A stretch of DNA of 38,764 nucleotides. Source: Enterococcus phage phiFL1A. How positions within the stretch are numbered: position 1 is the stretch's first letter; each line of letters begins with the position of its first letter. Made by a program: the position numbers and the translations under genes. Of the stretch, positions 10,197 to 31,512 are shown piece after piece. Where the stretch lies: sequence record GQ478081.1; one strand, given 5' to 3'. The notes beneath the pieces were generated by a model. It was not told where the DNA came from. It did not search any database and saw only the letters and a program-made list of their open reading frames with translations.

Positions 10197-10283
10197 AACT
10201 AAATCTAAAATCAAGAAGAAAAAACGTAGACTAAAAGAAAAAGCTATTGCAAATGGCACATACAGTAAGCGAGGGAAAAGCGA

Positions 10284-10424: not shown

Positions 10425-10475
10425 TGAAAGGAGTGGAGGTTTGGTCGACCACAAAGAATTCTTTACTCCTTTGGA

Positions 10476-11265: not shown

Positions 11266-11285
11266 GCGGAAAGAGAGTAAAGAAG

Positions 11286-12308: not shown

Positions 12309-12445
12309 TGGGAGAAATTGCAGAAATGATGTTGGAAGGTGTCTTATGTGCAAGTTGTGGAGTATTCCTTGATGTAGATGGGAATGGGTATCCTGAATAT
12401 TGTGAAGATTGCCAAGAACAAATAATCGAGGAGGACCATCGATGA
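12308..12445 (+). CDS. small Cys-rich (zinc-finger-like) protein (45 aa)
   Basis: Excellent RBS CAGGAGGAAGGA before the ATG. Motif C.SCG...C.DC. Confidence 0.35.
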   Translation: MGEIAEMMLEGVLCASCGVFLDVDGNGYPEYCEDCQEQIIEEDHR

Positions 12446-12948: not shown

Positions 12949-12951
12949 TAA

Positions 12952-13152
12952 ATGGAAAAATCAAAAAGTTTGATCATATGGCTACCGACTGGTGAAACAA
13001 TGAAGTTTGAAGATGTTAGGCATGTTGAAACAGTTACAACTGATTTAGAATGGGATGTTTTAAAATTTAATTATCTAGGTATTTCAACTGGAGTAAGACG
13101 AAATGTAGTATTTGAAATGAGTAAATTAATGGGATGGGCATTGGAAGAATAA
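12952..13152 (+). CDS. hypothetical protein (66 aa)
   Basis: ORF with GGAGGG RBS. Confidence 0.45.
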   Translation: MEKSKSLIIWLPTGETMKFEDVRHVETVTTDLEWDVLKFNYLGISTGVRRNVVFEMSKLMGWALEE

Positions 13153-13155
13153 TAA

Positions 13156-13356
13156 ATGATCAAATTTAAAGAATTCAATACTCAACCTTACGATGTTCAC
13201 ATTACTAGATTTTTTGAAGATTTAAACAGAAACAACCCAGATGGTGTTTTTGAATATGTTGACTTGAAATGCGTTGATAGAAATTTAGTGATATTAGTTT
13301 ACCGTCAAACTAATAGAAGCATACGTCAGCTCGGAAATGTACTTAAGGGAGGATAA
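13156..13356 (+). CDS. hypothetical protein (66 aa)
   Basis: Compact ORF following the previous gene. Confidence 0.45.
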   Translation: MIKFKEFNTQPYDVHITRFFEDLNRNNPDGVFEYVDLKCVDRNLVILVYRQTNRSIRQLGNVLKGG

Positions 13357-13359
13357 GCA

Positions 13360-13563
13360 ATGCTAAGTTATCCAGAAGTTTATATTTTAGGGCGACAAGT
13401 CGATGACGTTTGTGTTGAATACCTGCGCGGATCAGAGCAAGCCGATTTATTTTTCGATTATACGATAGCTCGTGATGAAAGAAATCATATGAATAAAAGC
13501 AATACAAAAGATGGCGAATGGAGAATTTTAAAATATGGGAGGCCAAGTACATTGGAGTTTTAA
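13360..13563 (+). CDS. hypothetical protein (67 aa)
   Basis: ORF with AAGGGAGG RBS. Last gene of the early block. Confidence 0.45.
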   Translation: MLSYPEVYILGRQVDDVCVEYLRGSEQADLFFDYTIARDERNHMNKSNTKDGEWRILKYGRPSTLEF

Positions 13564-13603
13564 CTTATTGCAACTTTTTTACAATAACTAGCTGATTTTT
13601 TGC

Positions 13604-13811
13604 AAACAAAAAGCCAGCCGACCAATGGCTGACTAATGTGGTAGTTAGCACTTTTCCCAAGTAAAGTGCTAATAGTGCCAACAAATAAGGTTGACATTGT
13701 GTCTCTGGTGGAGACAGGAACTATCGATAACTGTTTTCCGCCAGTTATCATAGAAAAGGAGAAATTTATTTCAGAAATAAAATCCCCAAGAAAGTTAATA
13801 TGATTATATCA
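13604..13811 (-). ncRNA. candidate structured noncoding RNA (about 190 nt)
   Basis: Minus-strand extended -10 TGATATAAT (complement of 13803-13811). Three perfect hairpins follow: stems of 8 bp (13726-13749), 6 bp (13700-13716) and 10 bp (13645-13672). Then a terminator CAGCC-ATTGGTC-GGCTG + UUUUUGUUUG (complement of 13604-13633). The overlapping 63-aa ORF has no RBS. Confidence 0.25.
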
Positions 13812-13952
13812 TGAGTAAATGTATTTGAAAATACTATCTCATAGTACGTATTGTAAAAAGTTTATTTAGTAGAAAATAAAAAAAGCCAGATTGCTCCGGC
13901 TGTGAGTAATATTTTCGACATAGTTATTATACCACAAAAGGAGCGATTTCAC

Positions 13953-14369
13953 TTGATTCAATTGCTAAAAGAAGTAGATTTTCGACAAACAAAAGTGAAT
14001 GCTAGAAATGTGTTGAAGAATTTTAGACGTTTAGAGCGAATAGCTGGTCGCTCTTTGATAGATTTAAAATCACCAATTATTACAGATATGCCTAAAAGCC
14101 AAAGTCATGGGAACAAATCAGAAGATGCGCTAGTACAATTAGCAGATGCAGAAGCAGAAAGAGATGCAATTTTATCTGCACTTATGGCTTTGAGTTTGAC
14201 TAGTAGACAAATTCTGCACTACAGTTTTTGTGTGCAGGATCATTACTCTAATTACAAGATTGCTAGAGAAGTTGGATATTCTGAAAGAAGTATTCAACGC
14301 ATGAAATCAGAAGCTTTGATTGAATTCGCGGAAGCTTACCGAAATGGCAAAATAATTGCATATAAATAA
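13953..14369 (+). CDS. ArpU-family late transcriptional regulator
   Basis: ArpU-like sequence (..RRLERIAGRS..., C-terminal sigma-region-4-like YSERSIQRMKSEALIEFAEAY). TTG at 13953 is 9 nt after AAAGGAG. Alternative GTG start at 13902. Confidence 0.75.
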   Translation: MIQLLKEVDFRQTKVNARNVLKNFRRLERIAGRSLIDLKSPIITDMPKSQSHGNKSEDALVQLADAEAERDAILSALMALSLTSRQILHYSFCVQDHYSNYKIAREVGYSERSIQRMKSEALIEFAEAYRNGKIIAYK

Positions 14370-14373
14370 TTTT

Positions 14374-14401
14374 TGGCGGTTTTTTGGCGGAAAGTTGGCG
14401 G
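14374..14401 (+). promoter_or_regulatory. three direct TGGCGG repeats at 11-bp phasing (candidate activator binding site / late promoter region)
   Basis: ttTTGGCGGtttttTGGCGGaaagTTGGCGGttttt immediately after the arpU stop. One helical turn apart. Followed by -10-like TAATAT. Confidence 0.35.
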
Positions 14402-14593
14402 TTTTTATACGAATTTGAGTGCTAATATAGTAATATCGAAAGTCAAAGAAATAGACACATTACACAACACTTTCTCGTTTAGTCACCGTTCACTTTGTCT
14501 TTCGATGGTCACTTGCAGACTTACGTTCTCAATAAAATGAAGTGAGGTGAATAACCTCCTCTTTTTTCTACAAGTTTGCAAGGGACACTTTAA

Positions 14594-14666
14594 TGGAATA
14601 TAGCTCAGTTGGTAGAGCGTACGACTGTTAATCGTAGGGTCATGAGTTCGAGTCTCGTTATTCCAG
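14594..14666 (+). tRNA. tRNA-Asn (anticodon GTT)
   Basis: Canonical cloverleaf folded by hand. 7-bp acceptor TGGAATA/TATTCCA (U1-A72), U8, D-arm GCTC-AGTTGGTA-GAGC, anticodon loop CTGTTAA, T-loop TTCGAGT, discriminator G. No encoded CCA. Confidence 0.88.
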
Positions 14667-14761
14667 TAAGTAGCTATGCTACTTAAATAAAAAAATCGTC
14701 AATAAGTCAAATGTAACTACCTTTACGATCAGATGACGGTTAAGATTTTCCCTCCTATCTG

Positions 14762-14791
14762 AGACTGCACTTCTGAGTGTGGTCTTTTTTT
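14762..14791 (+). terminator. rho-independent terminator after tRNA-Asn
   Basis: 9-bp stem AGACTGCAC/GTGTGGTCT (two G-U pairs), loop TTCTGA, then TTTTTTT. Confidence 0.5.
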
Positions 14792-14823
14792 CTTAAAAAT
14801 TCATAGCTAATCAAATTTCACTT

Positions 14824-14852
14824 TTTACATTCTTTTTATATTAGCTTATAGT
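14824..14852 (+). promoter_or_regulatory. sigma70-like promoter of the moron cassette
   Basis: -35 TTTACA (14824-14829), 17-nt spacer, -10 TATAGT (14847-14852). About 45 nt upstream of the 14900 start. Confidence 0.4.
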
Positions 14853-14899
14853 ATTATGTAGTAAGTAAAAAATATGAAAATAAGTGGAGTGAAAATTTA

Positions 14900-15514
14900 A
14901 TGAGTTTAAATAGTCTATTGTTGTTATTGATTTTTGGTGGTATTGCAATTATTGGTTATTTTGTAAAAGATTTACCAAATTTGTTTAGGGAACTAGCAGT
15001 TGAAGAATCGCGAGGAAAAAACGAAAGAGAAATTCAAAAAGAGGCTTTCTTTCGTCAAATCAAGGGTTCAGATATAGATGAAGCTTTTAACTATTGGACT
15101 AGCTTGATGGTTGATATGGATAATAAGATAAATCAGATTGGAACGGCATCTGGTAAAAAAGAGTTCGTAAAAATGCAACAAAAGGTTTTGATGTACGGTT
15201 CGAATGGCACAGTCACTATCCTTTCTTCTATGATGCAGCATGTTTATAGACGGGGAGAATTGAAGAATACAGTAAAAGTTTCATTTGGAGATCAAGATAG
15301 TACAAAGGAAAATATACAAAACTATATGTTAATGTTTTACATTGCGTATCTAATAAGTTCATTAAAAAAAGACTTTACAGGATACAGTATTGATCCTATA
15401 GAAATTCTATTAATTAAAATAAATGATATAGATAGTCATAAGAATAAACCACTTTTTGAACAAGCTGAAAAAAATGTTCGAAAAGAATTAAAGAAGCTAG
15501 GGGTGACTATCTAG
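14900..15514 (+). CDS. membrane-anchored protein of unknown function (204 aa), moron gene
   Basis: N-terminal TM helix (LLLLLIFGGIAIIGYFV) followed by a soluble domain with no recognizable family. Own promoter and flanking terminators. RBS GTGGAGTG..AAATTTAATG. Confidence 0.6.
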   Translation: MSLNSLLLLLIFGGIAIIGYFVKDLPNLFRELAVEESRGKNEREIQKEAFFRQIKGSDIDEAFNYWTSLMVDMDNKINQIGTASGKKEFVKMQQKVLMYGSNGTVTILSSMMQHVYRRGELKNTVKVSFGDQDSTKENIQNYMLMFYIAYLISSLKKDFTGYSIDPIEILLIKINDIDSHKNKPLFEQAEKNVRKELKKLGVTI

Positions 15515-15526
15515 AGGGGAGTCGAA

Positions 15527-15685
15527 ATGCTACTTGTAATAGCTTTTGCTTTTATATTATTAAAGATAGCAGGTTTTGTACAATTGACTTGGAATGAAGT
15601 GATACTATGTGAATTAATTCTACTGATGTGTTCTATTTTAGAACTCATATTAATTTACAAGAAAATAAATAATAGATTTAAATAG
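15527..15685 (+). CDS. small two-TM hydrophobic protein (52 aa)
   Basis: RBS GGGGAG 5 nt before the ATG. MLLVIAFAFILLKIAGFV...ILLMCSILELILIY: two hydrophobic helices. Immediately followed by a strong terminator. Confidence 0.4.
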   Translation: MLLVIAFAFILLKIAGFVQLTWNEVILCELILLMCSILELILIYKKINNRFK

Positions 15686-15710
15686 ATCACTCGTTGAGTG
15701 GTCTTTTTTT
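15685..15710 (+). terminator. rho-independent terminator closing the moron cassette
   Basis: 8-bp stem GATCACTC/GAGTGGTC, loop GTT, then TTTTTTT. Confidence 0.6.
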
Positions 15711-15717
15711 CGTACAT

Positions 15718-15748
15718 AAAAAAACCACTAGACTATGGGATCTAGTGG
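15718..15748 (-). terminator. minus-strand rho-independent terminator (convergent with the preceding one)
   Basis: Perfect 8-bp stem CCACTAGA/TCTAGTGG, preceded on the plus strand by A7 (a U7 tail on the minus strand). Confidence 0.5.
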
Positions 15749-15877
15749 CTAGGTAGCGTTAGTGAAAATCTCGTGTCACTTGTAGTTTATGAACTTTAGC
15801 TATTATGAAAGAGTGCTACCTAAAACAAGTGTAACATAGCTGTCAAGTTTTGTCGGATATTTGGATTGTTTTCGCAT

Positions 15878-15906
15878 GAAAAACCACCAGATAAGATATC
15901 TAGTGG
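15878..15906 (-). terminator. second minus-strand rho-independent terminator
   Basis: 9-bp stem CCACCAGAT/ATCTAGTGG (one mismatch), preceded by A5 on the plus strand (a U-tail on the minus strand). Sequence-related to the 15718 hairpin. Confidence 0.4.
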
Positions 15907-15975
15907 CCAGACAGCAGATTATGTTTTGAAATAACTGGAAGTGTTACATGAAGCAAAAAGGAGTTGCTGTCTTGC
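15878..15975 (-). ncRNA. candidate small RNA (about 95 nt)
   Basis: Minus-strand extended -10 TGtTATACT (complement of 15980-15988), so the TSS is near 15972. Internal 8-bp long-range stem AGACAGCA/UGCUGUCU. Ends at the 15878-15906 terminator. No ORF. Confidence 0.2.
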
Positions 15976-16049
15976 AGTGAGTATAACAGGAATTGAAGCG
16001 TTTGTCTTACAATAAACAAATATACATAAAAACAATTAGGAGAGAGAAC

Positions 16050-16127
16050 ATGAAAAGCTATTGGTATGTATCGTTAACACATGAATATCCACAGCCGAAC
16101 CGCTCAACTGATTCAGTACGTGTCTAA
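16050..16127 (+). CDS. micro-ORF (25 aa) with strong RBS
   Basis: AGGAGAGAGAACATG. MKSYWYVSLTHEYPQPNRSTDSVRV. Followed by an AAAGGC...GCCTTT stem and a T-rich tail. Could be a leader peptide or small protein. Confidence 0.25.
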   Translation: MKSYWYVSLTHEYPQPNRSTDSVRV

Positions 16128-16230
16128 AGGCCGCACAATAAAAGTGTAGCCTTTTATTTTATTCCTCGTGTTGAAAGAAATTAGTAATTAGTAGATAATT
16201 AATTCAAAAGACAGATGGAGGTATAATAGT

Positions 16231-16953
16231 TTGGAAAATAATTCAAAGAGTGCTGATGACAAAGTAATCAAAAACTATGAAGAGACGTTGAGTATTATTT
16301 TTAAAAAAATACCGGACTCAAATGAGCCCCTGATCTATATGGTCGCAAGTGAAATAGGTTTCGAGATTCTAGATTTAAAACTGTCAATAAATGCTTTATT
16401 AGAAAGTGCTTGTTATGCTGGTATTTTAGCTTTATCCAGAACAATGGTGGAAAATTATATTTATTTAATGTATATACTCGAACAAGATTCTTTTAAAAGA
16501 AGCAAAGCGTATCAATTGAACATGTATAGAGATATAAAAAAACAATATGAGGCGCAAAAAAAGAATAAAAAATTACAACAAATGTCTGAACAAGATCAAA
16601 GCTTTAATGAACAAATTGTTTTATATGAACAAAATGAGCCTAAAATTATAGAATATTTAGAAGAACTTGATTCACTCTATGGGCATAGATTAGTACCATG
16701 GTACAATGATGACGAAGAAACAAAAGGAATATATAAGCTATTTGAGCGTTTAGATAAGTCGGATTGGTATGATGGTATATATAGATACTTATGTATGGAA
16801 TCCCATGGTAATAACGGATTAAAACATTTTGAAATGTTAGAAGATGGTACTGCAAAATTAAAACCAACTACGTTGGATGAAAAACAAATCAGTAGCATAA
16901 CTTGTAGTATCCTAGATAAAACAAAAAAAGAATTAGAAAAATTAATTATTTAG
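16231..16953 (+). CDS. hypothetical protein (240 aa), possible HEPN-like accessory protein
   Basis: TTG start 8 nt after GGAGG. Mostly helical, charged protein. C-terminal R-x6-H (RYLCMESH) resembles the HEPN Rx4-6H motif. Sits between the moron and terS. Confidence 0.55.
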   Translation: MENNSKSADDKVIKNYEETLSIIFKKIPDSNEPLIYMVASEIGFEILDLKLSINALLESACYAGILALSRTMVENYIYLMYILEQDSFKRSKAYQLNMYRDIKKQYEAQKKNKKLQQMSEQDQSFNEQIVLYEQNEPKIIEYLEELDSLYGHRLVPWYNDDEETKGIYKLFERLDKSDWYDGIYRYLCMESHGNNGLKHFEMLEDGTAKLKPTTLDEKQISSITCSILDKTKKELEKLII

Positions 16954-16999
16954 AAAACAAAACTCAACCATTTATATGAAAGCGAGGTGGTGTTAATGG

Positions 17000-17809
17000 A
17001 TGGCTAGAAAAAGAGATCCACGTCGTGACCAGGCTAAAGAAACTTGGTTAAAGTCAAACGGTAAAAAGGTTCTTAAAGAATTAGCTAATGAATTAAATGT
17101 TTCAGATTCCCAAATAAGAAAATGGAAATCGATAGATAAATGGGCTGATGAATTAAAAGGTAATGTTACCAATTCAAAAAGTAACGTTACTAATAAAGGT
17201 GGAGCGCCGCCTGGAAACAAAAATGCCGTAGGTAACAAAGGGAATAAAAGTGCCTCGCCACCAAAAAGAAATAAGAATGCGGTAAAAACAGGTGAATATG
17301 AGACAATATTTGCTGACTTACTATCTGACGAAGAAAAGGACATCTATTCTAAACTGAATGATGATCCTTTTTTTGTTTTGGAGGAAGAAATAAGAATCCT
17401 AAAGATTCGTCAATATAGAATGCTTAAACGCATAAAAAATGCAGAGGCTGGCTTAAATGATGAAGAAGTTGAACGTTTGCAACAGCTTCGGAAAGTTAAA
17501 GAGCCATCGGCAATTGATGGGAAAATGGTTACTGTCAAAAGAGAAGTTTTGAAAGATGTACAAATAACTCGTAAAACATTTAGAAAGTTAGATGACATTT
17601 TAGCTATAGAAGATGCGTTGACTCGCGTTAGCAATCAACTAGTCAAAGCGATTAAGCAACAAAAAGAACTTGCTATGAGTGATAGTCGTATTTCGCTACT
17701 AAATGCACAGGTCGCAAAAATAAGACAGAATACTGATGAGACAGAATCTACAGAGTCTAAGCTTGATGAATTGATGTCTATGATTAGTGGTGAATTAAAT
17801 GAGTCTTAA
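17000..17809 (+). CDS. terS: terminase small subunit
   Basis: N-terminal HTH (KKVLKELANELNVSDSQIRKWK). Internal low-complexity (NVTNSKSNVTNKGGAPPGNKNAVGNKGNK). C-terminal coiled coil. Directly upstream of and overlapping terL. Confidence 0.65.
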   Translation: MARKRDPRRDQAKETWLKSNGKKVLKELANELNVSDSQIRKWKSIDKWADELKGNVTNSKSNVTNKGGAPPGNKNAVGNKGNKSASPPKRNKNAVKTGEYETIFADLLSDEEKDIYSKLNDDPFFVLEEEIRILKIRQYRMLKRIKNAEAGLNDEEVERLQQLRKVKEPSAIDGKMVTVKREVLKDVQITRKTFRKLDDILAIEDALTRVSNQLVKAIKQQKELAMSDSRISLLNAQVAKIRQNTDETESTESKLDELMSMISGELNES

Positions 17810-22874: not shown

Positions 22875-23870
22875 ATGAAAAATATGTCAAAAACTAATAA
22901 AGAACGTTTATTAAAAATGGATTTGCAACTATTTGCGGCAGAACCAGACCTTACAAAAATGGACGATTTAGGAGAAATTAAATCCATTGATTTTGTGAAT
23001 CGTTTTGAAGCAGGAATCAAAGAGTTGTTAGAATTATTAGGAGTAACACGCTTAGAACCTTTATCAAAAGATATGAAAATACAAATGTACAAATGGACAT
23101 CTTCATTAAAAGATGGAAACATTGCTGAAGGCGATGATATTCCTTTATCTAAAGTGTCTCGAGCTAAAGGAAAATCATTTACAGTAACATTTAATAAATG
23201 GCGCCGTGCAGTAACTGCAGAAGCGATTGCTCGTCATGGAGCATCTATTGCGATTGATCAATCTGACGAAAAATTATTACGCCAAATTCAAGGCGGAATT
23301 AAATCACAATTTGTTAACTTCCTAGGTACAGCCCCTACTAAAATTCAAGCTGAAGGGTTACAAAAAGCGTTAGCACAGTCATGGGGGAAACTAAGCACAT
23401 TCGAAGAGTTTGATGGCGCTCAATTTGTTTCCTTTGTAAATCCTATGGATGTAGCAACCTACTTAGGGGATACAAAAGTCTTAGCAGATGCATCTAATGT
23501 ATTTGGTATGACCTTATTGAAAAACTTTCTAGGTGCAACAAACGTTATTGTATTAAACGCAATCCCAGAAGGAAAGGTTTATTCTACCGCCGTTGACAAT
23601 ATCGTATTAGCATACTTGGATATGAAGGCATCTGATTTAGGTGATATTTTTGTGGACTTTGTTGATGAAACTGGTTTTATTTCAGCGACTCGTGGACGTA
23701 CCCTACGAAATGCAACATTTGAATCATTGTTTATGAATGCTTTAACATTATTCCCTGAAATTCCAGAAGGTGTAGTAGAAGCAACAATTAGTGGTGAAAC
23801 AACAACGACGACAAAACCAACAACAACAACGACAAAACCAACAACAACGACTACTACGACACAAGGGTAA
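22875..23870 (+). CDS. major capsid protein (HK97-fold) with Prp-type N-terminal motif and poly-Thr C-terminal tail
   Basis: 331 aa following the scaffold. N-terminus ...LLKMDLQLFAAEP. C-terminus ...ISGETTTTTKPTTTTTKPTTTTTTTQG. Confidence 0.8.
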   Translation: MKNMSKTNKERLLKMDLQLFAAEPDLTKMDDLGEIKSIDFVNRFEAGIKELLELLGVTRLEPLSKDMKIQMYKWTSSLKDGNIAEGDDIPLSKVSRAKGKSFTVTFNKWRRAVTAEAIARHGASIAIDQSDEKLLRQIQGGIKSQFVNFLGTAPTKIQAEGLQKALAQSWGKLSTFEEFDGAQFVSFVNPMDVATYLGDTKVLADASNVFGMTLLKNFLGATNVIVLNAIPEGKVYSTAVDNIVLAYLDMKASDLGDIFVDFVDETGFISATRGRTLRNATFESLFMNALTLFPEIPEGVVEATISGETTTTTKPTTTTTKPTTTTTTTQG

Positions 23871-23884
23871 AGTAGGTTTCTGAT

Positions 23885-24268
23885 ATGGGAAAGACAGAAA
23901 AAGAATACGGTGATCGTCTGAAGGAAATCAAAGTTTTGTTAGGCATTTCTGACGAACTCCAAGATGAATTGTTAACATTAGTGATTCAAGACAGTGAAGA
24001 ACGTATTTTATCTGTCTTGAATCAATATGCTCAAAAAAATGGAACAGATAAGTACGATGCTGTACCTGATAGTTTGAACTATATATTGAGAGATGTATCA
24101 ATTAAACGTTTCAACAAAAGAAATAGTGAAGGGACAAGTTCTGACAGCGAAGAAGGTCGTTCTTTTACTTGGGAAAAGAGTTATTTGGATGAATATTTGA
24201 ACATTTTAGACGAGTATACCAAGCCTGAAATTAGAGCTGGTAAAGGAATTGCGAGGTTTTTACCATGA
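23885..24268 (+). CDS. head-tail connector protein (gp6/gp15-like)
   Basis: 127 aa. Position and pattern match the Phage_connect_1 family. ATGA overlap with the next gene. Confidence 0.6.
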   Translation: MGKTEKEYGDRLKEIKVLLGISDELQDELLTLVIQDSEERILSVLNQYAQKNGTDKYDAVPDSLNYILRDVSIKRFNKRNSEGTSSDSEEGRSFTWEKSYLDEYLNILDEYTKPEIRAGKGIARFLP

Positions 24269-24546
24269 TTTATAACCATCGTTGTAAAATAGTCAAGAAT
24301 ATTACTACTGATGAAGGTTATTTAGGAGAAGAAGTCATTTCAAAAGAAGTTAAAACAGTACCTTGCAGTATCCATAATATTTCTTTTGATGAACAAATAG
24401 CTTTCTTTGGAAAATACAATAAGAATGCACTTAAAGTTCATTTACAGGGATATTTCTTCTTTGATGAAATTAATATAGACGGTATTTCTAAAAATATTTT
24501 TGATGTTAAGTTCCATCGCAATTCAACAGTTGTGATATTAACATGA
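24265..24546 (+). CDS. head closure / head-tail joining protein
   Basis: 93 aa. Position and size typical of the SPP1 gp16-like family. Confidence 0.55.
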   Translation: MIYNHRCKIVKNITTDEGYLGEEVISKEVKTVPCSIHNISFDEQIAFFGKYNKNALKVHLQGYFFFDEINIDGISKNIFDVKFHRNSTVVILT

Positions 24547-24890
24547 GCAAAGTTATTCAAATTGTTGGACTGAAGGCATTTGTTCGTGGTGTTAAGAAGC
24601 AAACAGAAAAAACAGAACAGTCTATTCATAAAGAGCTACAAAAATCAGGATTTAGAGTTGAGAAAAGGGCTAAACAATTAGCACCGGTAGATACTGGATG
24701 GTTAAGAAGCAATATATATTCATATATGATGAACAGAATGTGTGTAAGTATAGACTCGCCTGCTAACTATTCAATTTTCATCGAAGAAGGAACACGCTTC
24801 ATGGCTGCTCAACCTTTCTTGTATCCTGCTGTTAAAGAAGAATATCCAACATTAATGAAGAATTTACAAAAGATAGTTGGAGGTAAATGA
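24543..24890 (+). CDS. HK97 gp10-family tail component
   Basis: Motif APVDTGWLRSNI is characteristic of the HK97 gp10 family. Confidence 0.6.
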   Translation: MSKVIQIVGLKAFVRGVKKQTEKTEQSIHKELQKSGFRVEKRAKQLAPVDTGWLRSNIYSYMMNRMCVSIDSPANYSIFIEEGTRFMAAQPFLYPAVKEEYPTLMKNLQKIVGGK

Positions 24891-24891
24891 A

Positions 24892-25248
24892 GTGGAACAT
24901 GCCCCAAATACTAAATTTTTAAAAGAGATTTCTGAAAAATTATATAAAACGGGAATCCCTATTTACTATAAACTTCCAGGGCCAGAAATTATTGAGCCTT
25001 TTTATGTTATTGGCAATCACTTTGACGATGATACAAAAAGTGCAAAGTTTGGTGCTGCAATAGTGAACACTGATTTACAAATAGATTTATTTTATCCAGT
25101 AAATAGTAGAGCAAAAGTCGAAGATGTAATATATCAAACCAAATCTGCTCTACGTACAAAGAAAATTAGTACAAATATTAGACCTGATAACACTATTGGT
25201 CGAGAAGTTTATCATGTCGTATTTAAAATATCTGATTATATTTTTTAG
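24892..25248 (+). CDS. tail terminator / tail completion protein (gp17-like)
   Basis: About 118 aa, immediately before the major tail gene. GTG at 24892 is 8 nt after GGAGG. The track start TTG at 24877 is an alternative. Confidence 0.5.
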   Translation: MEHAPNTKFLKEISEKLYKTGIPIYYKLPGPEIIEPFYVIGNHFDDDTKSAKFGAAIVNTDLQIDLFYPVNSRAKVEDVIYQTKSALRTKKISTNIRPDNTIGREVYHVVFKISDYIF

Positions 25249-25259
25249 GAGGAATTCAT

Positions 25260-25916
25260 ATGCCAGAAACAGTAAATAACGGAATTAAAAAATTTCAAGG
25301 AACACCTATTAGAGGAAATCGTGTTTGGTACTTTATTCAAAGCACACAAGTACCAATTGGATCTCCAGCTCTCTTGCCTGCATTTCAAACAGATGGTACT
25401 ACAACTATTGGTGGTGACAACATCGATGAACAAACAAAAATGGGGCGTATCATTTTAAAGTCAACTGATGAACATAGTATTGAATTGACCCAATACTTTG
25501 CTCCCGACGATGAATCAATTGATGTTATTGAAGAAGCCAAAAAGAATGGACATTCTGTTAAAGTATGGCGAGTTGTTGTTGACGATACTCTTGCAACGGA
25601 AGAAGGCGCCGGAACTAAAGCTTATCCAGCTAAATTTGGTTATGGTATCCCTGACGAATTAGAATATGCTGAAGGAGAAGATCTAGTTGAAATTAGCTAC
25701 ACATTAAATATTGTAGGGAAATTGCAAGACGGAACATTTCCTTTGTCAGATGAAGACGTTGCAATGGTCGAAAGTTTGTATCAATTCCAACGCCCAGGAG
25801 AAACTACTGGTGATTATAGCAATATTGATAATGGAACAACAACAACTACTTCCACAACTACTACAACAACATCTTCCACCACGACGACAACAACAACGCA
25901 GGCGTCTTCTAAGTAA
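25260..25916 (+). CDS. major tail (tube) protein with poly-Thr C-terminal tail
   Basis: 218 aa. Strong RBS AGGAGG. Position matches the major tail protein. C-terminus ...NGTTTTTSTTTTTTSSTTTTTTTQASSK. Confidence 0.7.
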   Translation: MPETVNNGIKKFQGTPIRGNRVWYFIQSTQVPIGSPALLPAFQTDGTTTIGGDNIDEQTKMGRIILKSTDEHSIELTQYFAPDDESIDVIEEAKKNGHSVKVWRVVVDDTLATEEGAGTKAYPAKFGYGIPDELEYAEGEDLVEISYTLNIVGKLQDGTFPLSDEDVAMVESLYQFQRPGETTGDYSNIDNGTTTTTSTTTTTTSSTTTTTTTQASSK

Positions 25917-26824
25917 TGAAATATATTCTTTGTCAACCTGCAATCACTCGTTTTAAATGGGAATTAGAGGTTTGTTTGACAAATTTGAAAAAACTAGGAA
26001 TTAAAGATATTGTGCTTATTTTTAGCAAGCATGATGAAACGATTCCTAGTTTTTTTGAAGAGAAATATGGCGTTGAAGTTCATGTTTATGAAGATTCTAG
26101 GGATGACAAAGGATATATCCCTTCAATCAAACCTTATCTATGGTGGAAATATTTAGAAGAGAATCCCAAACGAGAAAACGAACGATATATGTATATTGAT
26201 TCAGATGTTATTTTCAGAAAGAAAATTAATTTTAGAAAAATGCCATCAAAAAATGACGTATGGTATTGTTCTGATTGCAACGGTTATTTGAATTTAGATT
26301 ATATTCGTCAATGTAAAAATGGAGAAAAAATCTTAGCTGATATGGCAGATATTGTAGGTGTGACTGTAGATTCGTTAGAAACAATTAATAATAACTCTGG
26401 AGGAGCTCAGTGGGTTATTACACGTCCTAAGAAAGAATATTGGGAAAAAGTTTATCATGATTCAAATCGTCTTTATCGTTACCTTGATGCTCAACAAAGT
26501 AATATTCAAAAATGGACAGCTGAGATGTGGGCACAACTTTGGAATATGATGTTTTATAACATAGGTCCTAAAATTCATGATGAATTAAATTTTTGCTGGC
26601 CAACAGATCCGATAGAAAAATGGTACGAAACAAAAATATTACACAATGCAGGTGTAACTGAAAAAGATAAAGATTTATTTTTTAAAGGAAAATATGTTAA
26701 TACAAGTCCCTTTGAAGATGGGTTAGATAATATGGCTAAAGATAAAGCAACTATAAAATATATAGAAGCTATAAAAATGGCTAAAACAGGAGGAAATAAT
26801 ATATGTCATTTACAGTTGGATTAA
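25916..26824 (+). CDS. GT-A-type (DxD) glycosyltransferase-like protein
   Basis: 302 aa. KPYLWWKYLEENPKRENERYMYIDSDVIF resembles the sugar-binding DxD region of Gly_transf_sug/GT32-like enzymes. Start overlaps the major tail stop (TAATG), with no RBS of its own. Unusual position inside the tail module. Confidence 0.5.
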   Translation: MKYILCQPAITRFKWELEVCLTNLKKLGIKDIVLIFSKHDETIPSFFEEKYGVEVHVYEDSRDDKGYIPSIKPYLWWKYLEENPKRENERYMYIDSDVIFRKKINFRKMPSKNDVWYCSDCNGYLNLDYIRQCKNGEKILADMADIVGVTVDSLETINNNSGGAQWVITRPKKEYWEKVYHDSNRLYRYLDAQQSNIQKWTAEMWAQLWNMMFYNIGPKIHDELNFCWPTDPIEKWYETKILHNAGVTEKDKDLFFKGKYVNTSPFEDGLDNMAKDKATIKYIEAIKMAKTGGNNICHLQLD

Positions 26825-27279
26825 AAGGGAAACAATTAGAAATTAAATTTAACTATGGAATGTTATTTAAAGCTAATAAAAAGCTAGGTACAAAAGATGC
26901 TCAAGGTAACTCACAAAATGATGGCGCGGGTGTTCTTTTTGTAAAAGTTCTAGAAGAAGATGATGATGCGCTTTTTGATATTATCAAGTTGGCTTCAAAA
27001 GACAAAGTAACAGATGAAGACATTGCGAAGTCTGTTCAGGATTTTGTGGAAACTTTTGAAGATGAAGAAGAAGGATACAGCATGGTATTTGAAACGCTTA
27101 AACAAGAAATGTTGGATTCTGGTTTTTTCGTGAAGAAATTGAAGAAATATATCAGCAATCTGGAGAAAGCAGCAGATTACTTGAAGAGCCAACAACCGAC
27201 CGAAGAGATTCAAAATCCAGAGCAGCAAGCAAAAGCGGTCAAAGATTTAGCAGATCGAATCAAGAAAGAAATCTCATAG
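26803..27279 (+). CDS. tail assembly chaperone (gpG-like)
   Basis: 158-aa acidic protein immediately upstream of the tape measure. Contains the slippery site GGTTTTTTC (27121-27129) in frame as G GTT TTT TC. Confidence 0.65.
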   Translation: MSFTVGLKGKQLEIKFNYGMLFKANKKLGTKDAQGNSQNDGAGVLFVKVLEEDDDALFDIIKLASKDKVTDEDIAKSVQDFVETFEDEEEGYSMVFETLKQEMLDSGFFVKKLKKYISNLEKAADYLKSQQPTEEIQNPEQQAKAVKDLADRIKKEIS

Positions 27280-27593
27280 TGAATTGTGCTAGGCAAGGAT
27301 TAGTGGATATTCCATTAATTATGTCTTGTTATAAGTGGGAGTTAGAAGCGATTTTAGAAGGATTAGCTTTGAAAAGCGTAGATGAACAAGAACAAAAAGC
27401 TCATTATGCGTTTACTTTAAGATATGTTTTGAATGCAAAAAAGCCAAAAATAAAAAAGGTATTTGATAAAGAAAAAATTGAACGCAAAATAAAATCTATT
27501 TTTGCTACGACAAACGAAAAGGAAGAAACATACAATCGTGTGGAAAAGGCAAAAGAAGTGATGAACTATTTCAAAAATAAAAAGTGGGGGTGA
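27123..27593 (+). CDS. -1 frameshift extension of the tail chaperone (gpGT-like product)
   Basis: The -1 frame is open from 27102 through 27593. U UUU UUC heptamer at codon 107 of gpG. The fusion product would be about 263 aa, ending just before the tape measure start. Confidence 0.45.
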   Translation, partial: FFREEIEEIYQQSGESSRLLEEPTTDRRDSKSRAASKSGQRFSRSNQERNLIVNCARQGLVDIPLIMSCYKWELEAILEGLALKSVDEQEQKAHYAFTLRYVLNAKKPKIKKVFDKEKIERKIKSIFATTNEKEETYNRVEKAKEVMNYFKNKKWG

Positions 27594-27597
27594 GTAA

Positions 27598-30500
27598 ATG
27601 GCTTTTGAAGGTGCTATTAACGCTGTTATCGGTGCTGATTTGTCGCAATATAATGCTGCAATGAATAAAGTTTCATCTATAGCGAATAAAACTATGAATG
27701 ATGTTGCTAACATATTACAAAGCGGATCTATGAGTACTACTCAAAAAGTCGGTCAAATTATGAGTAAGTTAGCTGATCCGATGCTAAATAGCGTTTCTAA
27801 AGTTTTACCGCAAACTGTTGCATTATTTGAAAAAGCTGGCGGCGGTATTCAACGTGTAATTGCTGGAATCGGCGAAAAAATACCACAACCAATTAAAAAA
27901 GGGATGTCTGCTGCCAAGAATGCGGTTGTAAGTTCAGCTAAAGAAATGGGAGCTGGACTATCACAACAAACATCAATAATTGGTAAAGCATTTTCGACAG
28001 TTGCTTCTAAAATACCACAGCCTTTTAAAAGTGCATTTAAAGCTGTTGGATCAAGTGCTAGTGAAATAAGTTCAAAAATTACTACTTTGGGAACTAATAT
28101 AGGTTCGAAATTAACTGGAGCGTTTAATAGTGCTGGATCAAAAGCGTCTAACGCACTAAATAAGATGGTTTCAGGAACCAATAAAGCAGGATCAGCAACA
28201 GATGATTTAGTAAAAAAAATCATAGGTATTGGTGCAGCATACGCGGTAGCTCAAAAAGGCATATCAGCACTTTCTAGCGGATTTAAAGAAATTATAGGTG
28301 ACTTGAACCAAGGCTCAGCTACATGGAAAACTTTCAATGCTAATATGGAAAATATTGGTAAAGGAAAAGATGAAATAGCATCTGTAAAAAAAGAGCTACA
28401 GGATTTTGCCACTAAAACAATTTATTCTGCTTCTGAAATGGCTACTACATATAGTCAATTAGCAGCTGTAGGAATAAAAAATACTGACAAATTGGTTATG
28501 GGTTTTGGTGGATTAGCTGCGGCAGCTGAAAATCCGACACAAGCGATGACAACGCTAAGTCAACAAGCTACACAAATGGCTGCTAAACCGATGGTTCAAT
28601 GGCAAGATTTTAAATTGATGTTAGAACAAACTCCTGCGGGTATTGCAGCTGTTGCTAAAACTATGGGCATGTCAACCTCTGAAATGGTGACTGCGGTTCA
28701 AGATGGGAAAATTGCTACTCAAGATTTCTTTGATGCAATAACTAAAACTGGTACAAACGAAACGTTTTCAAAAATGGCTACCGAATATAAAACTGTCGGT
28801 CAAGCAATGGATGGCTTAAAGGAAACAATCACCAATAAATTACAACCGGCTTTTGATCAACTGTCTCAAGTAGGGATAGAAGCAGTAAGCAAATTAACAG
28901 ATAAAATTGGTGACTTTAATATGGATAAAATATCTGCAGCGGTAGATATTGCTACAAATGTTTTAAACCATTTTATAAATGGTACTGATTTGTCTAAAAA
29001 AAGTATTGATGCTTTAAAAGGTGCTATTCAAGGACTATTACCTATAGCTGCTGTATTGGGAAGCGCGCTAGTAGTCAGTAAAGCAGTTCCTGCAATTGCA
29101 TCTCTTTCAAGCGGATTTTCAGCATTTTCAGGAATATTAGGAGGTATGATAAGCGGACCGTTCAAAATGTTTAGTTCTGGATTAACAGGTTTAATAGGTT
29201 TAATTCCTAAAATAGGAAGTAGCTTATCCATGGCAAGTTCTGTTGGGATGGGAGCCTTAGGTGGCATGACTTCTGCAATGGGAACTATCATGCAAGTGGC
29301 TTTATCAGCTATAGGACCTGCAGCTATATTAGGGTTAGTTATAGCTGGATTGGGATTAATAAATAATCAATTTGGAGCACAAATTGACCAATTATTAAAC
29401 ACAGTAACTACAAAAGGACCAGAAATTATAACTAATCTTGTTAATGGTATTACCTCACAATTGCCACAACTTATGCAAAGTGGCACTGAATTAATTGCTA
29501 AACTAGCTAGTGCTATATCTACAATGATTCCAGTAATCATAGATGCAGGTATGAAGATTATTGGAAGTCTTGTACAAGGTGTAGGACAAAATGCACCTTC
29601 TCTTATAAATTCAGCTTTAGAAGTTATTACTTCATTTTTGAGCTCCATAGCAAGTGCATTGCCTGAATTATTAAAAATGGGAATGGAACTTTTGCTGAAT
29701 ATAGTTAAAGGAATCATTCAAAATATACCCAAAATAGTTGAATCAGTAAAAAAAATCTTGGATTCGTTTGTTAATTCTGTAATGGAAAATCTACCTCAGA
29801 TTATAGATACGGGTATTCAGATTCTTCAGAATTTAATTGATGGTCTTACTCAATTACTGCCACAAATTTTACCTGTCGCATTAAACGCGATTCTAACATT
29901 AATCCAAGGTTTAATGGATAATATACCTAAGCTTTTAGATGGAGCAGTCCAAATAATAAATTCATTATGTAATTTTATTGTAGAAAACTTACCTATGATT
30001 CTAGATGCTGCAATGCAAATTATTATGGCCTTGGTTAATGGTATTGTAGAAAATTTACCTAACATTGTCTCTTCAGGGATACAAATCATTATGACGTTGA
30101 TTGGCACGGTAATCCAGATGCTACCACAAATTATTGCTGCTGGATGGGATATTATTAAAGCTCTTGCTGGTGCTATTTTAGAGGCTATTCCTAATGTTTT
30201 AAAAGGAGCTTGGGATGGTATTAAAAATGGGTTTTCAAATTTATGGAACACAATAACGGGTAAGTCATCTGAAACAAGCTCAAAAGTATCAAATGATGCT
30301 ACAACTACAGCTACAAATTTGAGTTCATCTTATGGACAAGCAAGTTCAAATGTTGCTAATTCAATGAACAACATGAATCTAAATGTAGGTAATTTGAGTA
30401 CACAAGCCTCAAACAATGCAATTAATGCTTCTAATGCAGCTAAAGATGGTACGTCTTCAAACTATAATCTACTAGCTACAAATGTATCAGGAACGATGAA

Positions 30501-31512
30501 TAACCTTAATAGTGTAGTAAGTTCAAATTCAACTAAAGCAGCAAATGCTGCAACAAAAGAGTCTAATAGTGCACTAAATGGTGTCTCTAGTGACTATAAT
30601 AGTATTTTATCTAATGTTAATCAGGCTACCTCTGGCACTGCGAATGCTGTTGGCACTAATATGAATCAAGCTACCCAACAAGCTTCTAGTGCCTCTAACC
30701 AAATGTTTCAAAATGTATCAAATAATACACAAAATATTAATAATAAATCTTCGCAAGACATTTCACAGATGTCAAACAATGTAACGAAGTCCATGAACTC
30801 AATGAAGTCAAATGTGACAGGTACAATGAATAGTGTTGTTAGTACTATTAACGGGGGATTCAGTAGGATAAATTCTGCAAATACTCAAGCATTCAATTCA
30901 ATGGCAAATAATGTTCAAAATGGTATGAATAGAATGAATAGTGCCGTTATGAATAGCATGAATTCAATGACAAGCATAATGATTTCTTCCACGAGTCGAA
31001 TAAACTCCATTTTTAGTGGATTGACTTCAACGCTTTCTAATATCGGTTATAATGCAGGTATAGGTTTGAGAAATGGTTTAGCAAATTCTGCGGGTTCTAT
31101 TTACGCAACTGCTAGTAATATAGCTAGTAACGTAGCCCGTACTATGAGGAAAGCACTGGACATTCATTCGCCATCACGTGTTACCGATAAAATTGGGGGA
31201 TTTGTTGGGATGGGTTTAGCTAACGGCATGTCAAGAATGCAAAAGCAAGTTGATAGACAAGCGTTAGCATATGCAACATCAATAAAATCACAAGAATATG
31301 AAGCAAATTCTGTTTTAACGGCGGATACTAGAAATGTCTCTAATAAGCTTTCTTCATCTATGAATGAATTAAGCGAAGAAGTTAAAACTAGTCAATTACA
31401 AGAACCAGTATTTGAAGTTCATACCGAACTTGTTGGAGATAAAATATACACAATTGTTAAACAAAAAGAAGCAAGAAATCAAAATAAAGTTAATTTGGTT
31501 AACAAGAAATAG
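27598..31512 (+). CDS. tape measure protein
   Basis: 1304 aa. Long helical, Ala/Gly/Ile-rich repeats. Internal hydrophobic segments. C-terminal Ser/Asn/Thr-rich low-complexity region. Confidence 0.9.
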   Translation: MAFEGAINAVIGADLSQYNAAMNKVSSIANKTMNDVANILQSGSMSTTQKVGQIMSKLADPMLNSVSKVLPQTVALFEKAGGGIQRVIAGIGEKIPQPIKKGMSAAKNAVVSSAKEMGAGLSQQTSIIGKAFSTVASKIPQPFKSAFKAVGSSASEISSKITTLGTNIGSKLTGAFNSAGSKASNALNKMVSGTNKAGSATDDLVKKIIGIGAAYAVAQKGISALSSGFKEIIGDLNQGSATWKTFNANMENIGKGKDEIASVKKELQDFATKTIYSASEMATTYSQLAAVGIKNTDKLVMGFGGLAAAAENPTQAMTTLSQQATQMAAKPMVQWQDFKLMLEQTPAGIAAVAKTMGMSTSEMVTAVQDGKIATQDFFDAITKTGTNETFSKMATEYKTVGQAMDGLKETITNKLQPAFDQLSQVGIEAVSKLTDKIGDFNMDKISAAVDIATNVLNHFINGTDLSKKSIDALKGAIQGLLPIAAVLGSALVVSKAVPAIASLSSGFSAFSGILGGMISGPFKMFSSGLTGLIGLIPKIGSSLSMASSVGMGALGGMTSAMGTIMQVALSAIGPAAILGLVIAGLGLINNQFGAQIDQLLNTVTTKGPEIITNLVNGITSQLPQLMQSGTELIAKLASAISTMIPVIIDAGMKIIGSLVQGVGQNAPSLINSALEVITSFLSSIASALPELLKMGMELLLNIVKGIIQNIPKIVESVKKILDSFVNSVMENLPQIIDTGIQILQNLIDGLTQLLPQILPVALNAILTLIQGLMDNIPKLLDGAVQIINSLCNFIVENLPMILDAAMQIIMALVNGIVENLPNIVSSGIQIIMTLIGTVIQMLPQIIAAGWDIIKALAGAILEAIPNVLKGAWDGIKNGFSNLWNTITGKSSETSSKVSNDATTTATNLSSSYGQASSNVANSMNNMNLNVGNLSTQASNNAINASNAAKDGTSSNYNLLATNVSGTMNNLNSVVSSNSTKAANAATKESNSALNGVSSDYNSILSNVNQATSGTANAVGTNMNQATQQASSASNQMFQNVSNNTQNINNKSSQDISQMSNNVTKSMNSMKSNVTGTMNSVVSTINGGFSRINSANTQAFNSMANNVQNGMNRMNSAVMNSMNSMTSIMISSTSRINSIFSGLTSTLSNIGYNAGIGLRNGLANSAGSIYATASNIASNVARTMRKALDIHSPSRVTDKIGGFVGMGLANGMSRMQKQVDRQALAYATSIKSQEYEANSVLTADTRNVSNKLSSSMNELSEEVKTSQLQEPVFEVHTELVGDKIYTIVKQKEARNQNKVNLVNKK

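Follow-up and report, generated by a model that had tools for sequence, protein, structure and literature searches.

Enterococcus phage phiFL1A most probably encodes an enzyme that O-glycosylates threonine tags on its capsid and tail-tube proteins, a GT8-like glycosyltransferase (GT) of the retaining GT-A type; we put the probability of this reading at roughly 78%. No glycan has been observed, and the reading rests on the predicted fold of the enzyme and on the co-occurrence of enzyme and tags. The window (the whole stretch of DNA analysed, 38,764 nt, GQ478081.1) belongs to an Enterococcus faecalis phage resembling phiFL2B and contains the following features:

22875..23870, + strand: major capsid protein gene (331 aa); proposed acceptor substrate
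23799..23867, + strand: capsid C-terminal poly-Thr tag TTTTTKPTTTTTKPTTTTTTTQG (23 aa, 17 Thr), preceded by ...ISGE
25260..25916, + strand: major tail (tube) protein gene (218 aa); proposed acceptor substrate
25836..25913, + strand: tube C-terminal poly-Thr/Ser tag TTTTTSTTTTTTSSTTTTTTTQASSK (26 aa, 18 Thr, 5 Ser), preceded by ...IDNG
25914..25918, + strand: TAATG stop/start overlap of the tube and GT genes; the GT start is the ATG within TAATG
25916..26824, + strand: gene of the 302-aa glycosyltransferase with predicted GT-A fold (GT8-like); proposed tag-modifying enzyme
26198..26206, + strand: codons of the DxD motif, D95-S96-D97; proposed Mn2+/UDP-sugar binding site (no binding data)
26590..26594, + strand: T5 homopolymer within the GT gene; T6 in the phiFL2A record
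26642..26644, + strand: H243 codon; proposed third metal ligand (role inferred from the GT8 DxD...H arrangement)
26684..26686, + strand: K257 codon; proposed diphosphate contact (inferred by analogy with GT8 H-x(n)-K)
26803..27279, + strand: tail assembly chaperone gene (Pfam Phage_TAC_12, E 6e-11; phrog_183)

The capsid gene product was identified as phrog_544 major head protein (E 4e-69), and its Streptococcus prophage homologs (60–69% identical) are annotated as major capsid protein. The tube gene product was identified as phrog_238 major tail protein (E 8e-55); for its homolog in 315.6, the annotated best match is SPP1 gene 17.1. Both proteins end in Thr tracts, as the preliminary description had claimed. 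In the tails, 17 of 23 (capsid) and 18 of 26 (tube) residues are Thr, compared with 7–9% in the protein cores. The capsid tag begins exactly at the end of homology to GT-less relatives (...EIPEGVVEATI), which carry short tails without a Thr run in its place. GT-less tube relatives stop at ...PGETTGDYxNI plus 0–15 residues, again without a Thr run. When all six frames of the 38.8-kb window were scanned, capsid and tube were the only Thr-dense ORFs (≥10 Thr in 20 residues).

The GT gene belongs to the late structural operon. Between the capsid and tube genes are the expected connector genes, and the tape measure gene comes after the Phage_TAC_12 chaperone. The chaperone gene begins 22 nt before the GT gene ends, and the canonical module order resumes there. 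The tube gene is followed by the chaperone gene, with no 302-aa gene between them, in five syntenic Streptococcus prophages and in eight closer IMG/VR relatives, which bears out the earlier view of a gene wedged into the tail module. The GT gene had also been said to overlap the tube stop and to lack a ribosome-binding site of its own. This was confirmed: no Shine-Dalgarno sequence was present in the 20 nt upstream of the GT start, whereas the chaperone gene is preceded by GGAGG. Because the TAATG overlap comes without a ribosome-binding site, we infer translational coupling of the GT to the tube gene; the suggested coupled expression is supported to this extent, the coupling itself being an inference.

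A structural role was considered for the 302-aa protein, as the GenBank record of phiFL2B labels gp49 (the GT gene) as 'major tail protein' and gp48 (the real tube) as 'conserved hypothetical'. We rejected this candidate: gp48 is the phrog_238 tube, so the gp49 label is off by one and gives no evidence for a structural role. The GT-A fold model likewise rules out a known tail structural protein. In the record of phage 1706, the GT homolog orf14 is labelled 'unknown' and its neighbours 'structural protein'; going by these labels, the GT protein is not a virion component.

The AlphaFold2 model of the 302-aa protein was of high confidence (pLDDT 94.8, pTM 0.90) and showed GT-A topology with a single Rossmann-like alpha/beta/alpha domain. 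The top Foldseek matches in the PDB were all GT-A retaining glycosyltransferases (E 8e-9 to 1e-6). The structural matches in BFVD were two family members first, followed by GT8/GT-A glycosyltransferases. No transmembrane segment was found in the GT protein. The DxD motif sits directly after a beta-strand (residues 90–93). The proposed GT-A fold with DxD was upheld by a confident model.

The protein contains the motif YMYIDSDVIF, of which Y93, D95 and D97 do not vary between homologs. The two Asp residues are conserved without exception in 41 close and 56 distant homologs (the latter 30–49% identical). H243, which terminates strand 241–243 in the model, and K257 are invariant in both sets as well. 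E203 is invariant among close homologs only.

The checks proposed earlier on GT-family membership came out positive for fold and DxD but negative for sequence. The Pfam scan of the GT protein returned no family at E≤1, Glyco_transf_8 (PF01501) included, and a PDB profile search with it gave no glycosyltransferase match. The hhalign comparison with glycogenin was weak (probability 0.26), with the DxD as the sole aligned segment. As far as these searches go, the GT protein is not assignable by sequence alone to any characterised GT family. For its retaining stereochemistry, the closest structural neighbours are the sole basis of inference.

Since GT-A-like folds also occur in enzymes of other chemistry, the Thr tails might instead be modified by sugar-1-phosphate transfer (Stealth/CpsY, GlcNAc-1-phosphotransferase type) or by nucleotidyl transfer. 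The best structural matches, all of the GT8/GT24/GT6 type, scored ~5 Z-units above these sugar-1-phosphate/nucleotidyl-transferase alternatives, and DxD plus His plus Lys is the pattern of Leloir GT-A enzymes. This explanation is very unlikely.

The case for O-glycosylation of the tags rests further on the distribution of the gene. Thr tails were present in all 80 GT-carrying IMG/VR loci; the Thr tracts at such loci were mostly C-terminal (81/86) and no more than 100 nt away from the GT gene (74/86). The GT together with Thr tails was also found in eleven further backbones, among them Herelleviridae and a Chryseobacterium phage. Nine diverse GenBank phages have the GT and Thr tracts on structural proteins (iLp84, bIL285, 1706, VPE25, SA2, phiCTP1, Bacchae, SAC12B and Chryseobacterium phage MA9V-3), and the carriers of their Thr tracts are non-homologous: phrog_10 and phrog_544 capsids, phrog_238 and phrog_2645 tubes, phrog_909 and phrog_14018. 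A GT without tails, which would have counted against the preliminary description, was found neither in the 80 IMG/VR loci nor in the nine GenBank phages.

In the capsid-side sample, all 11 GT-positive loci had both tails and all 11 GT-negative loci had neither (Fisher p=2.8e-6); in eight of the latter, the capsid is 80–88% identical to that of the phage. Among further GT-less homologs outside this sample, tails were found in none of nine. The expectation that relatives lacking the GT also lack the tails was therefore met in 20 of 20 cases, the 80–88% identical capsids included. The counts of GT and tails are not phylogenetically independent, and this applies to the Fisher test. The joint gain and loss of enzyme and tails across unrelated phages strongly suggests a sugar-coated particle.

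We also checked 120 arbitrarily sampled viral stretches that encode Thr8. The GT family was found in seven, and in six of these seven it adjoins a poly-Thr ORF; the base rate of the family is ~539 of 2.9 million contigs. Poly-Thr without the GT family was seen at 72 of 79 arbitrary viral loci, which means that the tails are not exclusive to the family and that other uses or enzymes are possible. In bIL285 and VPE25, the GT adjoins a capsid gene without a Thr tail, and the tail is on the tube only. In SA2, one Thr tract is found within the head-maturation protease, and this is no surface protein.

The preliminary description, which spoke of one phage group, underestimated the scope of the system. 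The GT family comprises at least 871 clusters at 50% identity and is spread over many phage lineages, with hosts in the Bacillota plus one Bacteroidota phage. Virulent phages carry it too (VPE25, SA2, and Bacchae and SAC12B of the Herelleviridae). In distant members, fusions to GT2 or Glyco_transf_7C, radical-SAM/SPASM or methyltransferase domains are seen.

This spread bears on the possibility that the GT modifies a host envelope polymer (wall teichoic acid, Epa rhamnopolysaccharide or lipoteichoic acid) in the manner of TarP, for superinfection exclusion or serotype conversion, with the tails as unrelated linkers. The phage is temperate (integrase at 1–1368), the acceptor cannot be read from the fold alone, and modification of teichoic acid by prophage GT-A enzymes is well documented (TarP of S. 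aureus; bioRxiv 10.1101/2023.12.21.572611). However, the family is not confined to temperate phages, and the GT gene occupies no lysogeny or moron position but overlaps the tube gene in the late operon without a ribosome-binding site. An envelope enzyme would also have no reason to be gained and lost jointly with the tails among relatives 80–88% identical, or to adjoin poly-Thr ORFs in unrelated metagenomic phages. We regard this role as very unlikely.

An inactive, non-glycosylating GT-fold protein that acts as an assembly factor or chaperone and binds the tails as unmodified flexible spacers is no easier to sustain. It would fit the place of the gene directly before the tail assembly chaperones and the undetectable sequence similarity to active GTs. 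Moreover, the T6 in the phiFL2A record shifts the GT reading frame before H243 while both tails are retained; unless this is a sequencing error, the phage can be viable without the enzyme. Yet D-x-D, His and Lys are strictly conserved in 56 members with identities as low as 30%, which is the expectation for an active metal/nucleotide-sugar site. Fusions to GT2 domains and other modifying enzymes occur in the family, and the gene is found elsewhere than at the tail-chaperone position in Herelleviridae and the Chryseobacterium phage.

Glycosylation of the phage DNA in a hypermodified-base pathway is hardly credible: phage GT-A/GT8-like enzymes glycosylating 5hmC DNA exist (bioRxiv 10.1101/2023.12.21.572611) and a small SAM methyltransferase is encoded at 10476–10943, but no TET/5mYOX or thymidylate-synthase homolog was found in the Pfam scan of the replication module or the phiFL2B annotation, and a DNA-modifying GT in the structural operon would leave the association with the tails unexplained.

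Modification of the virion tags by the GT has a parallel in phages of other hosts. Mycobacteriophage capsid and tail-tube subunits are glycosylated at their C-termini (Freeman et al. 2023, Cell Host Microbe 31:1216, in the summary given by PMC12619734). Actinobacteriophages (e.g. Che8, Corndog) share with the Enterococcus system one or more phage-encoded glycosyltransferases. In the latter, C-terminal extensions that are candidate acceptors are present on both capsid and tube and absent from GT-less homologs. The differences are considerable. The Enterococcus phage has a single GT of a sequence-orphan family without a Pfam or NCBIfam model, a near-pure poly-Thr acceptor tag, a GT gene inside the structural operon beside a substrate gene whose stop it overlaps, and no methyltransferase gene adjoining the GT. 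No actinophage protein was among the best 50 BFVD matches of the GT model. Glycans are proven in actinobacteriophages, whereas they are only inferred here.

Sequence similarity to GT8 enzymes (glycogenin, LgtC, the Skp1 alpha-galactosyltransferase Gat1) and to the GT24 enzyme UGGT is undetectable, and the His-to-Lys spacing is longer than in GT8. Many GT8 enzymes lengthen existing glycans instead of initiating on Ser/Thr. No second GT is encoded by the phage, as judged by the phiFL2B annotation. The serine-rich-repeat pathway of streptococci and staphylococci starts with the GT-B enzymes GtfA/GtfB, continues with Gtf3, GlyE and others, and uses accessory Sec export. The phage system differs in having a single GT-A enzyme and virion subunits as proposed substrates, and the phiFL2B annotation contains no other GT and no secretion gene.

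In mucin-type glycosylation, a retaining GT-A enzyme of family GT27 puts an alpha-linked sugar directly on clustered Thr in Thr/Pro-rich tracts, and we take TTTTTKPTTTTT to be similar to mucin PTS repeats. Unlike GT27, the phage enzyme would be cytoplasmic (not Golgi); it has no ricin-type lectin domain and no sequence relationship to that family, and GT27 was absent from its top structural matches. PBCV-1 A64R of chloroviruses and the capsid GTs of giant viruses belong to eukaryotic viruses and concern atypical N-linked glycans on a folded double-jelly-roll capsid protein without a poly-Thr tag.

In the proposed mechanism, the 302-aa protein would work in the cytoplasm as a soluble glycosyltransferase that depends on a metal ion; it would have a GT-A fold, belong to the GT8-like retaining type and be produced in step with the tail-tube protein. 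It would transfer a sugar from a host nucleotide-sugar to hydroxyls of the poly-Thr tags on the capsid and tube proteins. A TTTTTKPTTTTTTTQG peptide would be expected to accept sugar from a UDP-sugar in the presence of Mn2+. The donor (UDP-hexose or UDP-HexNAc), the alpha (retaining) linkage and Thr as the acceptor are all inferred. As the tags are C-terminal additions where related proteins stop, they should project outside the head and the tail tube. The virion would then carry a dense mucin-like O-glycan brush, provided that the tags are surface-exposed as inferred. Antibody or protease shielding, colloidal stability, and adhesion to mucus or cell-wall glycans may be its roles.

No prior description of virion glycosylation of this kind was found outside actinobacteriophages. 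If the reading is true, the sugar-coating of virions extends past the phages of mycobacteria and their relatives, the only ones for which it has been shown so far.

The finding is located within the late structural operon of the window. The genes of the terminase, the portal, a Mu-F-like head protein and the scaffold lie upstream of the capsid gene, and the order then continues as follows:

22875–23870, major capsid gene, followed by four connector genes
25260–25916, major tail (tube) gene
25916–26824, gene of a 302-aa putative glycosyltransferase (GT)
26803–27279, tail assembly chaperone gene
27279–27593, frameshift partner of the chaperone
27598–31512, tape measure gene

The region 22875–27600 is 100% identical to the E. 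faecalis temperate phages phiFL2B and phiFL2A (genus Phifelvirus), apart from one extra T in the GT gene of phiFL2A. The window and the phiFL2B record (GQ478085.1) begin at the same serine-integrase gene, and the window is ~1.9 kb longer (38,764 vs. 36,826 bp). The early/replication region (1–17800) is not colinear with GQ478085.1 and the coordinates drift, so the window represents a mosaic of the phiFL2 type, distinct from phiFL2B. The −1-frame ORF at 27279–27593 matches the C-terminal part of phrog_183 and forms a canonical G/GT programmed-frameshift pair with the preceding chaperone ORF in frame 1 (the slippery site is not part of the basis for this assignment). In the tape measure protein, the C-terminal third (residues ~885–1130, window ~30250–31000) contains a long low-complexity region rich in Ser, Asn and Thr (...SSETSSKVSNDATTTATNLSSSYGQASSNVANSMNNMN...).

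The capsid protein ends in TTTTTKPTTTTTKPTTTTTTTQG (23799–23867), where 17 of 23 residues are Thr, and the tube protein ends in TTTTTSTTTTTTSSTTTTTTTQASSK (25836–25913), where Thr accounts for 18 and Ser for 5 of 26 residues. The Thr content of the two protein cores was 7–9%. When all six frames of the window were scanned for ORFs of ≥80 aa with ≥10 Thr in any 20 residues, only the capsid and tube ORFs were identified. The start codon of the GT gene lies inside the TAATG that closes the tube gene. No Shine-Dalgarno-like sequence was found ahead of this start, while the downstream chaperone gene does have a GGAGG. The preliminary description had pointed to the two Thr-rich ends, the overlap with the tube stop and the missing ribosome-binding site, and all of these sequence observations held in full.

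We checked whether relatives without the GT also lack the tails, as had been proposed, and found this to be the case in prophage controls and in a capsid-side sample. In five syntenic Streptococcus prophages (capsids 60–69% identical), the GT is absent and the tube gene is followed directly by the chaperone gene. Their capsids end ~8–11 residues past ...EIPEGVVEATI and their tubes 0–15 residues past ...PGETTGDYxNI, with no Thr run in these short ends. None of the 73 phage genomes in which the GT was matched is a Streptococcus record. Four more distant GT-negative capsid homologs had no Thr tails either. In an unbiased sample drawn from the capsid side, both tails were present in all 11 GT-positive loci, and neither tail occurred in any of the 11 GT-negative loci, eight of which had capsids 80–88% identical (Fisher p = 2.8e-6; the loci are not phylogenetically independent).

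Seen from the GT side, Thr tails were found on structural ORFs in 80 of 80 GT-carrying IMG/VR loci. A transferase without tails, which would have refuted the proposal, was thus looked for and not encountered in this set. With a threshold of ≥8 Thr in 12 residues, four of the 80 loci were scored as tailless; on inspection, these had T6–T7 tails or were truncated. Most Thr tracts in these loci were ≤12 residues from the C-terminus (81 of 86) and ≤100 nt from the GT gene (74 of 86). About 60 of the 80 loci have a different backbone, in which the capsid belongs to another family (phrog_10), ends in TTTTTTKPTTTTTTTQA and is encoded by a gene that stops 4 nt ahead of the GT.

Nine GenBank phages that have nothing but the GT in common with the window phage were also compared. 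In iLp84, capsid and tube both end in ...TTTTTTTSK, and a 125-aa poly-Thr protein is encoded just 5′ of the GT. In phage 1706, orf10 ends in ...TTTTTTTTTHHD and the tube in ...TTTTTTTTTTHHD. Tube tails were found in bIL285, VPE25, SA2 and phiCTP1, in the latter also on a head protein and the portal; in bIL285 and VPE25, the capsid gene beside the GT has no Thr tail. The GT of the Herelleviridae phages Bacchae and SAC12B and of Chryseobacterium phage MA9V-3 is flanked by poly-Thr or TTV-repeat proteins.

Some of these loci showed further features. Small proteins of phrog_14018 (~115–125 aa, mostly Thr runs, labelled ‘major tail protein’) are encoded directly 5′ of the GT in the Lactobacillus siphovirus iLp84 (iLp84_8, 6504–6878 of its locus, L086) and likewise in the Herelleviridae myovirus Bacchae (8649–8993 of L092); they may be dedicated glyco-decoration proteins travelling with the GT. 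In the Tybeckvirus SAC12B (L094, 7665–8970 and 18121–18696), the GT homolog is 33% identical, and the flanking proteins carry TTVxPTTVEE-type repeats, not pure poly-Thr. The repeats may be a variant acceptor; the annotation of one flanking protein reads ‘Ig domain containing protein’. In Staphylococcus phage SA2 (L090), the tube gene (8117–8713) is overlapped at its 3′ end, in a different frame, by a poly-Thr ORF without a PHROG match (8649–8927). The arrangement recalls frameshift-made tube extensions such as SPP1 gp17.1*, without slippery-site evidence. SA2 also has a Thr tract inside a head-maturation protease/scaffold-like protein (3874–4980), and the phiCTP1 portal has a C-terminal one (434–2023 of L091). 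As these two proteins are not on the virion surface, their tracts are unexplained by a simple ‘surface coat’.

The reverse sample comprised 120 arbitrary viral stretches (~1 Mb) with an (ACN)x8 pattern, 79 of which had a Thr8 run within an ORF. A GT family member was found in seven of the 79 (E 1e-50 to 1e-135), in six cases directly adjoining the poly-Thr ORF; the base rate of the family is ~539 of 2.9 million contigs. As the other 72 loci lacked the family, poly-Thr tracts are not exclusive to it.

Sequence searches did not identify the 302-aa protein. It has no Pfam family and yielded merely a noise match in NCBIfam, and a PDB search with a 41-sequence profile returned no relative, only a spurious kinetochore protein. 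The sole match was phrog_4417 (function unknown, E 4e-156). The profile comparison (hhalign) of the family with human glycogenin, whose sequence was verified against PDB 3t7m, was not significant; the only aligned segment pairs YIDSDVIF with FMDADTLV. An AlphaFold2 model from 41 homologs was very confident (pLDDT 94.8, pTM 0.90), and its top Foldseek matches in the PDB were all GT-A glycosyltransferases: WbbM, UGGT (GT24), glycogenin (GT8) and GT6 alpha-3-GalT/GTA/GTB. Among viral models, two family members came first (including Lactobacillus phage LP65 Orf49), followed by viral GT8/GT-A enzymes. Hence, the GT-A fold suspected in the preliminary description is supported by structure prediction, but not by a sequence match to GT families.

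In the model, D95-S-D97 immediately follows strand 90–93. In 56 members at 30–49% identity to the query, Y67, D95, D97, Y124, G163, W200, M204, H243, G246, F255 and K257 are invariant. E203 (TAEMW motif), a catalytic candidate from close homologs, was dropped because its conservation does not extend to the deep alignment. In GT8 enzymes, the DxD and a downstream His and Lys serve Mn2+ and the UDP diphosphate. By analogy, D95, D97, H243 and K257 may correspond to this arrangement, which is inferred without residue-level superposition. The protein contains no hydrophobic segment and should therefore act in the cytoplasm.

The family is large and unrecognised. All 1,029 homologs in a large protein collection (at least 871 clusters at 50% identity for the family) are named ‘hypothetical’ or ‘prophage pi2 protein 34’. 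The record of phage 1706 lists the homolog, orf14, as ‘unknown’ and its neighbours as ‘structural protein’. Distant or longer members (P0168, P0170, P0179, P0238) are fused to GT2, Glyco_transf_7C, radical-SAM/SPASM or methyltransferase domains, as would be expected of a modification enzyme rather than a structural protein. In other phages, such fusions may point to the modification of glycans or peptides in several steps. The GenBank label ‘major tail protein, domain phage_Maj_tail’ on the GT gene (phiFL2B gp49, GQ478085.1) was rejected as off by one gene: the true tube gene, gp48, is labelled ‘conserved hypothetical’, and the phiFL2A record labels the two genes (window 25260–26824) correctly.

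Compared with the window, the GT gene of phiFL2A (GQ478084.1; ~1385–1391 of locus L216) differs by T5 becoming T6 at 26590–26594, the single-base difference that also separates it from phiFL2B. The extra T shifts the frame at about residue 225, ahead of the invariant H243; both Thr tails are kept, and gp49 is annotated there as a mere 31-aa stub. Either the extra T is a homopolymer sequencing error, or phiFL2A is a natural GT-null. If real, phiFL2A and phiFL2B are an isogenic pair.

Other functions were weighed against glycosylation of the virion. A related chemistry, e.g. phospho-sugar or nucleotidyl transfer, remains possible at low probability. A TarP-like enzyme modifying the cell wall is disfavoured: the GT gene lies in the late operon with its start overlapping the tube stop, the family is present in virulent phages, and this function offers no reason for the link to Thr tails. 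A pseudo-enzyme or chaperone conflicts with the deep invariance of the DxD, His and Lys. DNA glycosylation was tried and rejected, as the required 5hmC/5hmU pathway is absent (no TET or ThyS partner in a Pfam scan of the replication-module ORFs or in the phiFL2B annotation).

Under virion glycosylation, ribosomes ending the tube protein in late expression would probably re-initiate on the GT, judging from the TAATG overlap and the absent ribosome-binding site. The soluble enzyme would bind a host UDP-sugar via Mn2+, D95, D97, H243 and K257 (an inference based on the fold and on residue invariance) and O-glycosylate Thr hydroxyls of the capsid and tube tags, with GTTTTTTKPTTTTTTTQG as a candidate acceptor. 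The latter step is inferred from the co-occurrence of GT and tails; no glycan has been seen, and glycosylation of this virion is an inference only. The linkage would probably be alpha, as the nearest structural neighbours are retaining enzymes. GT8-type enzymes often extend glycans and do not initiate them. Since the phage encodes no second GT (phiFL2B annotation), the simplest product would be a Thr brush bearing numerous single sugars or short chains, which host enzymes might lengthen. The tube protein is in the SPP1 gp17.1 lineage (annotation of a homolog), in which C-terminal additions are displayed on the tube exterior; that the capsid tail is likewise exposed is an assumption by analogy. 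If mycobacteriophages are a guide, one role of the coat may be to shield the virion from antibodies.

After the Thr run, capsid and tube of one phage share identical or near-identical end motifs, which differ between phage groups: ...TTTQG/QA/QR in Enterococcus, and, on both proteins, ...TTTSK in iLp84, ...TTTHHD in 1706 and ...TTTSHA in L. casei-type loci. In one IMG/VR locus (L001), the whole tails of two unrelated proteins are near-identical (TTTTTTKPTTTTTTTQG and TTTTTTRPTTTTTTTQG). These matches suggest a copied tag or a motif recognised by the cognate enzyme. A more far-reaching reading, which we hold tentatively (probability of roughly 40%), is that the poly-Thr tail and the GT family are a portable two-part glyco-tag. 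A dedicated cytoplasmic enzyme would recognise a short C-terminal tag (a Thr run plus a short phage-specific end motif) and make any tagged virion protein mucin-like, be it capsid, tube, decoration or fibre-like protein. The unit would have spread horizontally across siphoviruses, Herelleviridae and Bacteroidota phages.

Like the preliminary description, which was unaware of an account for this phage group, our literature search found none of the GT family or of Thr-tailed capsid/tube proteins in Bacillota phages. In full-text searches, virion glycosylation was found only for actinobacteriophages, and the precedent (Freeman 2023) is known second-hand. There, virion sugars blunt antibody recognition (PMC12619734, summarising Freeman et al. 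2023). As far as that source goes, the systems share a phage-encoded GT acting on capsid and tube C-termini (here inferred). Unlike in actinobacteriophages, the enzyme family here is unrecognised, the poly-Thr tag is distinctive, gene linkage is tight, and the host range is different and much wider.

If the glycosylation reading is right, it gives a function to a large family that is ‘hypothetical’ everywhere, absent from Pfam and NCBIfam and placed in a function-unknown PHROG. Virion glycosylation would then reach phages of Enterococcus, Lactobacillus, Lactococcus, Staphylococcus, Clostridium and Listeria-group hosts, some of them dairy phages or candidates for therapy (VPE25-like, SA2-like), and surface glycans could alter how these phages are cleared by the immune system, bind mucus and adsorb, as well as their stability. 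If the portable tag is also true, a single enzyme with a single, genetically encodable tag would make up a minimal system for O-glycosylation in the bacterial cytoplasm, which could be engineered. Many phages of gut and dairy Bacillota would then have glycan-coated virions, which would bear on adherence to mucus, on how phages used in therapy are recognised by the immune system, and on protein engineering.
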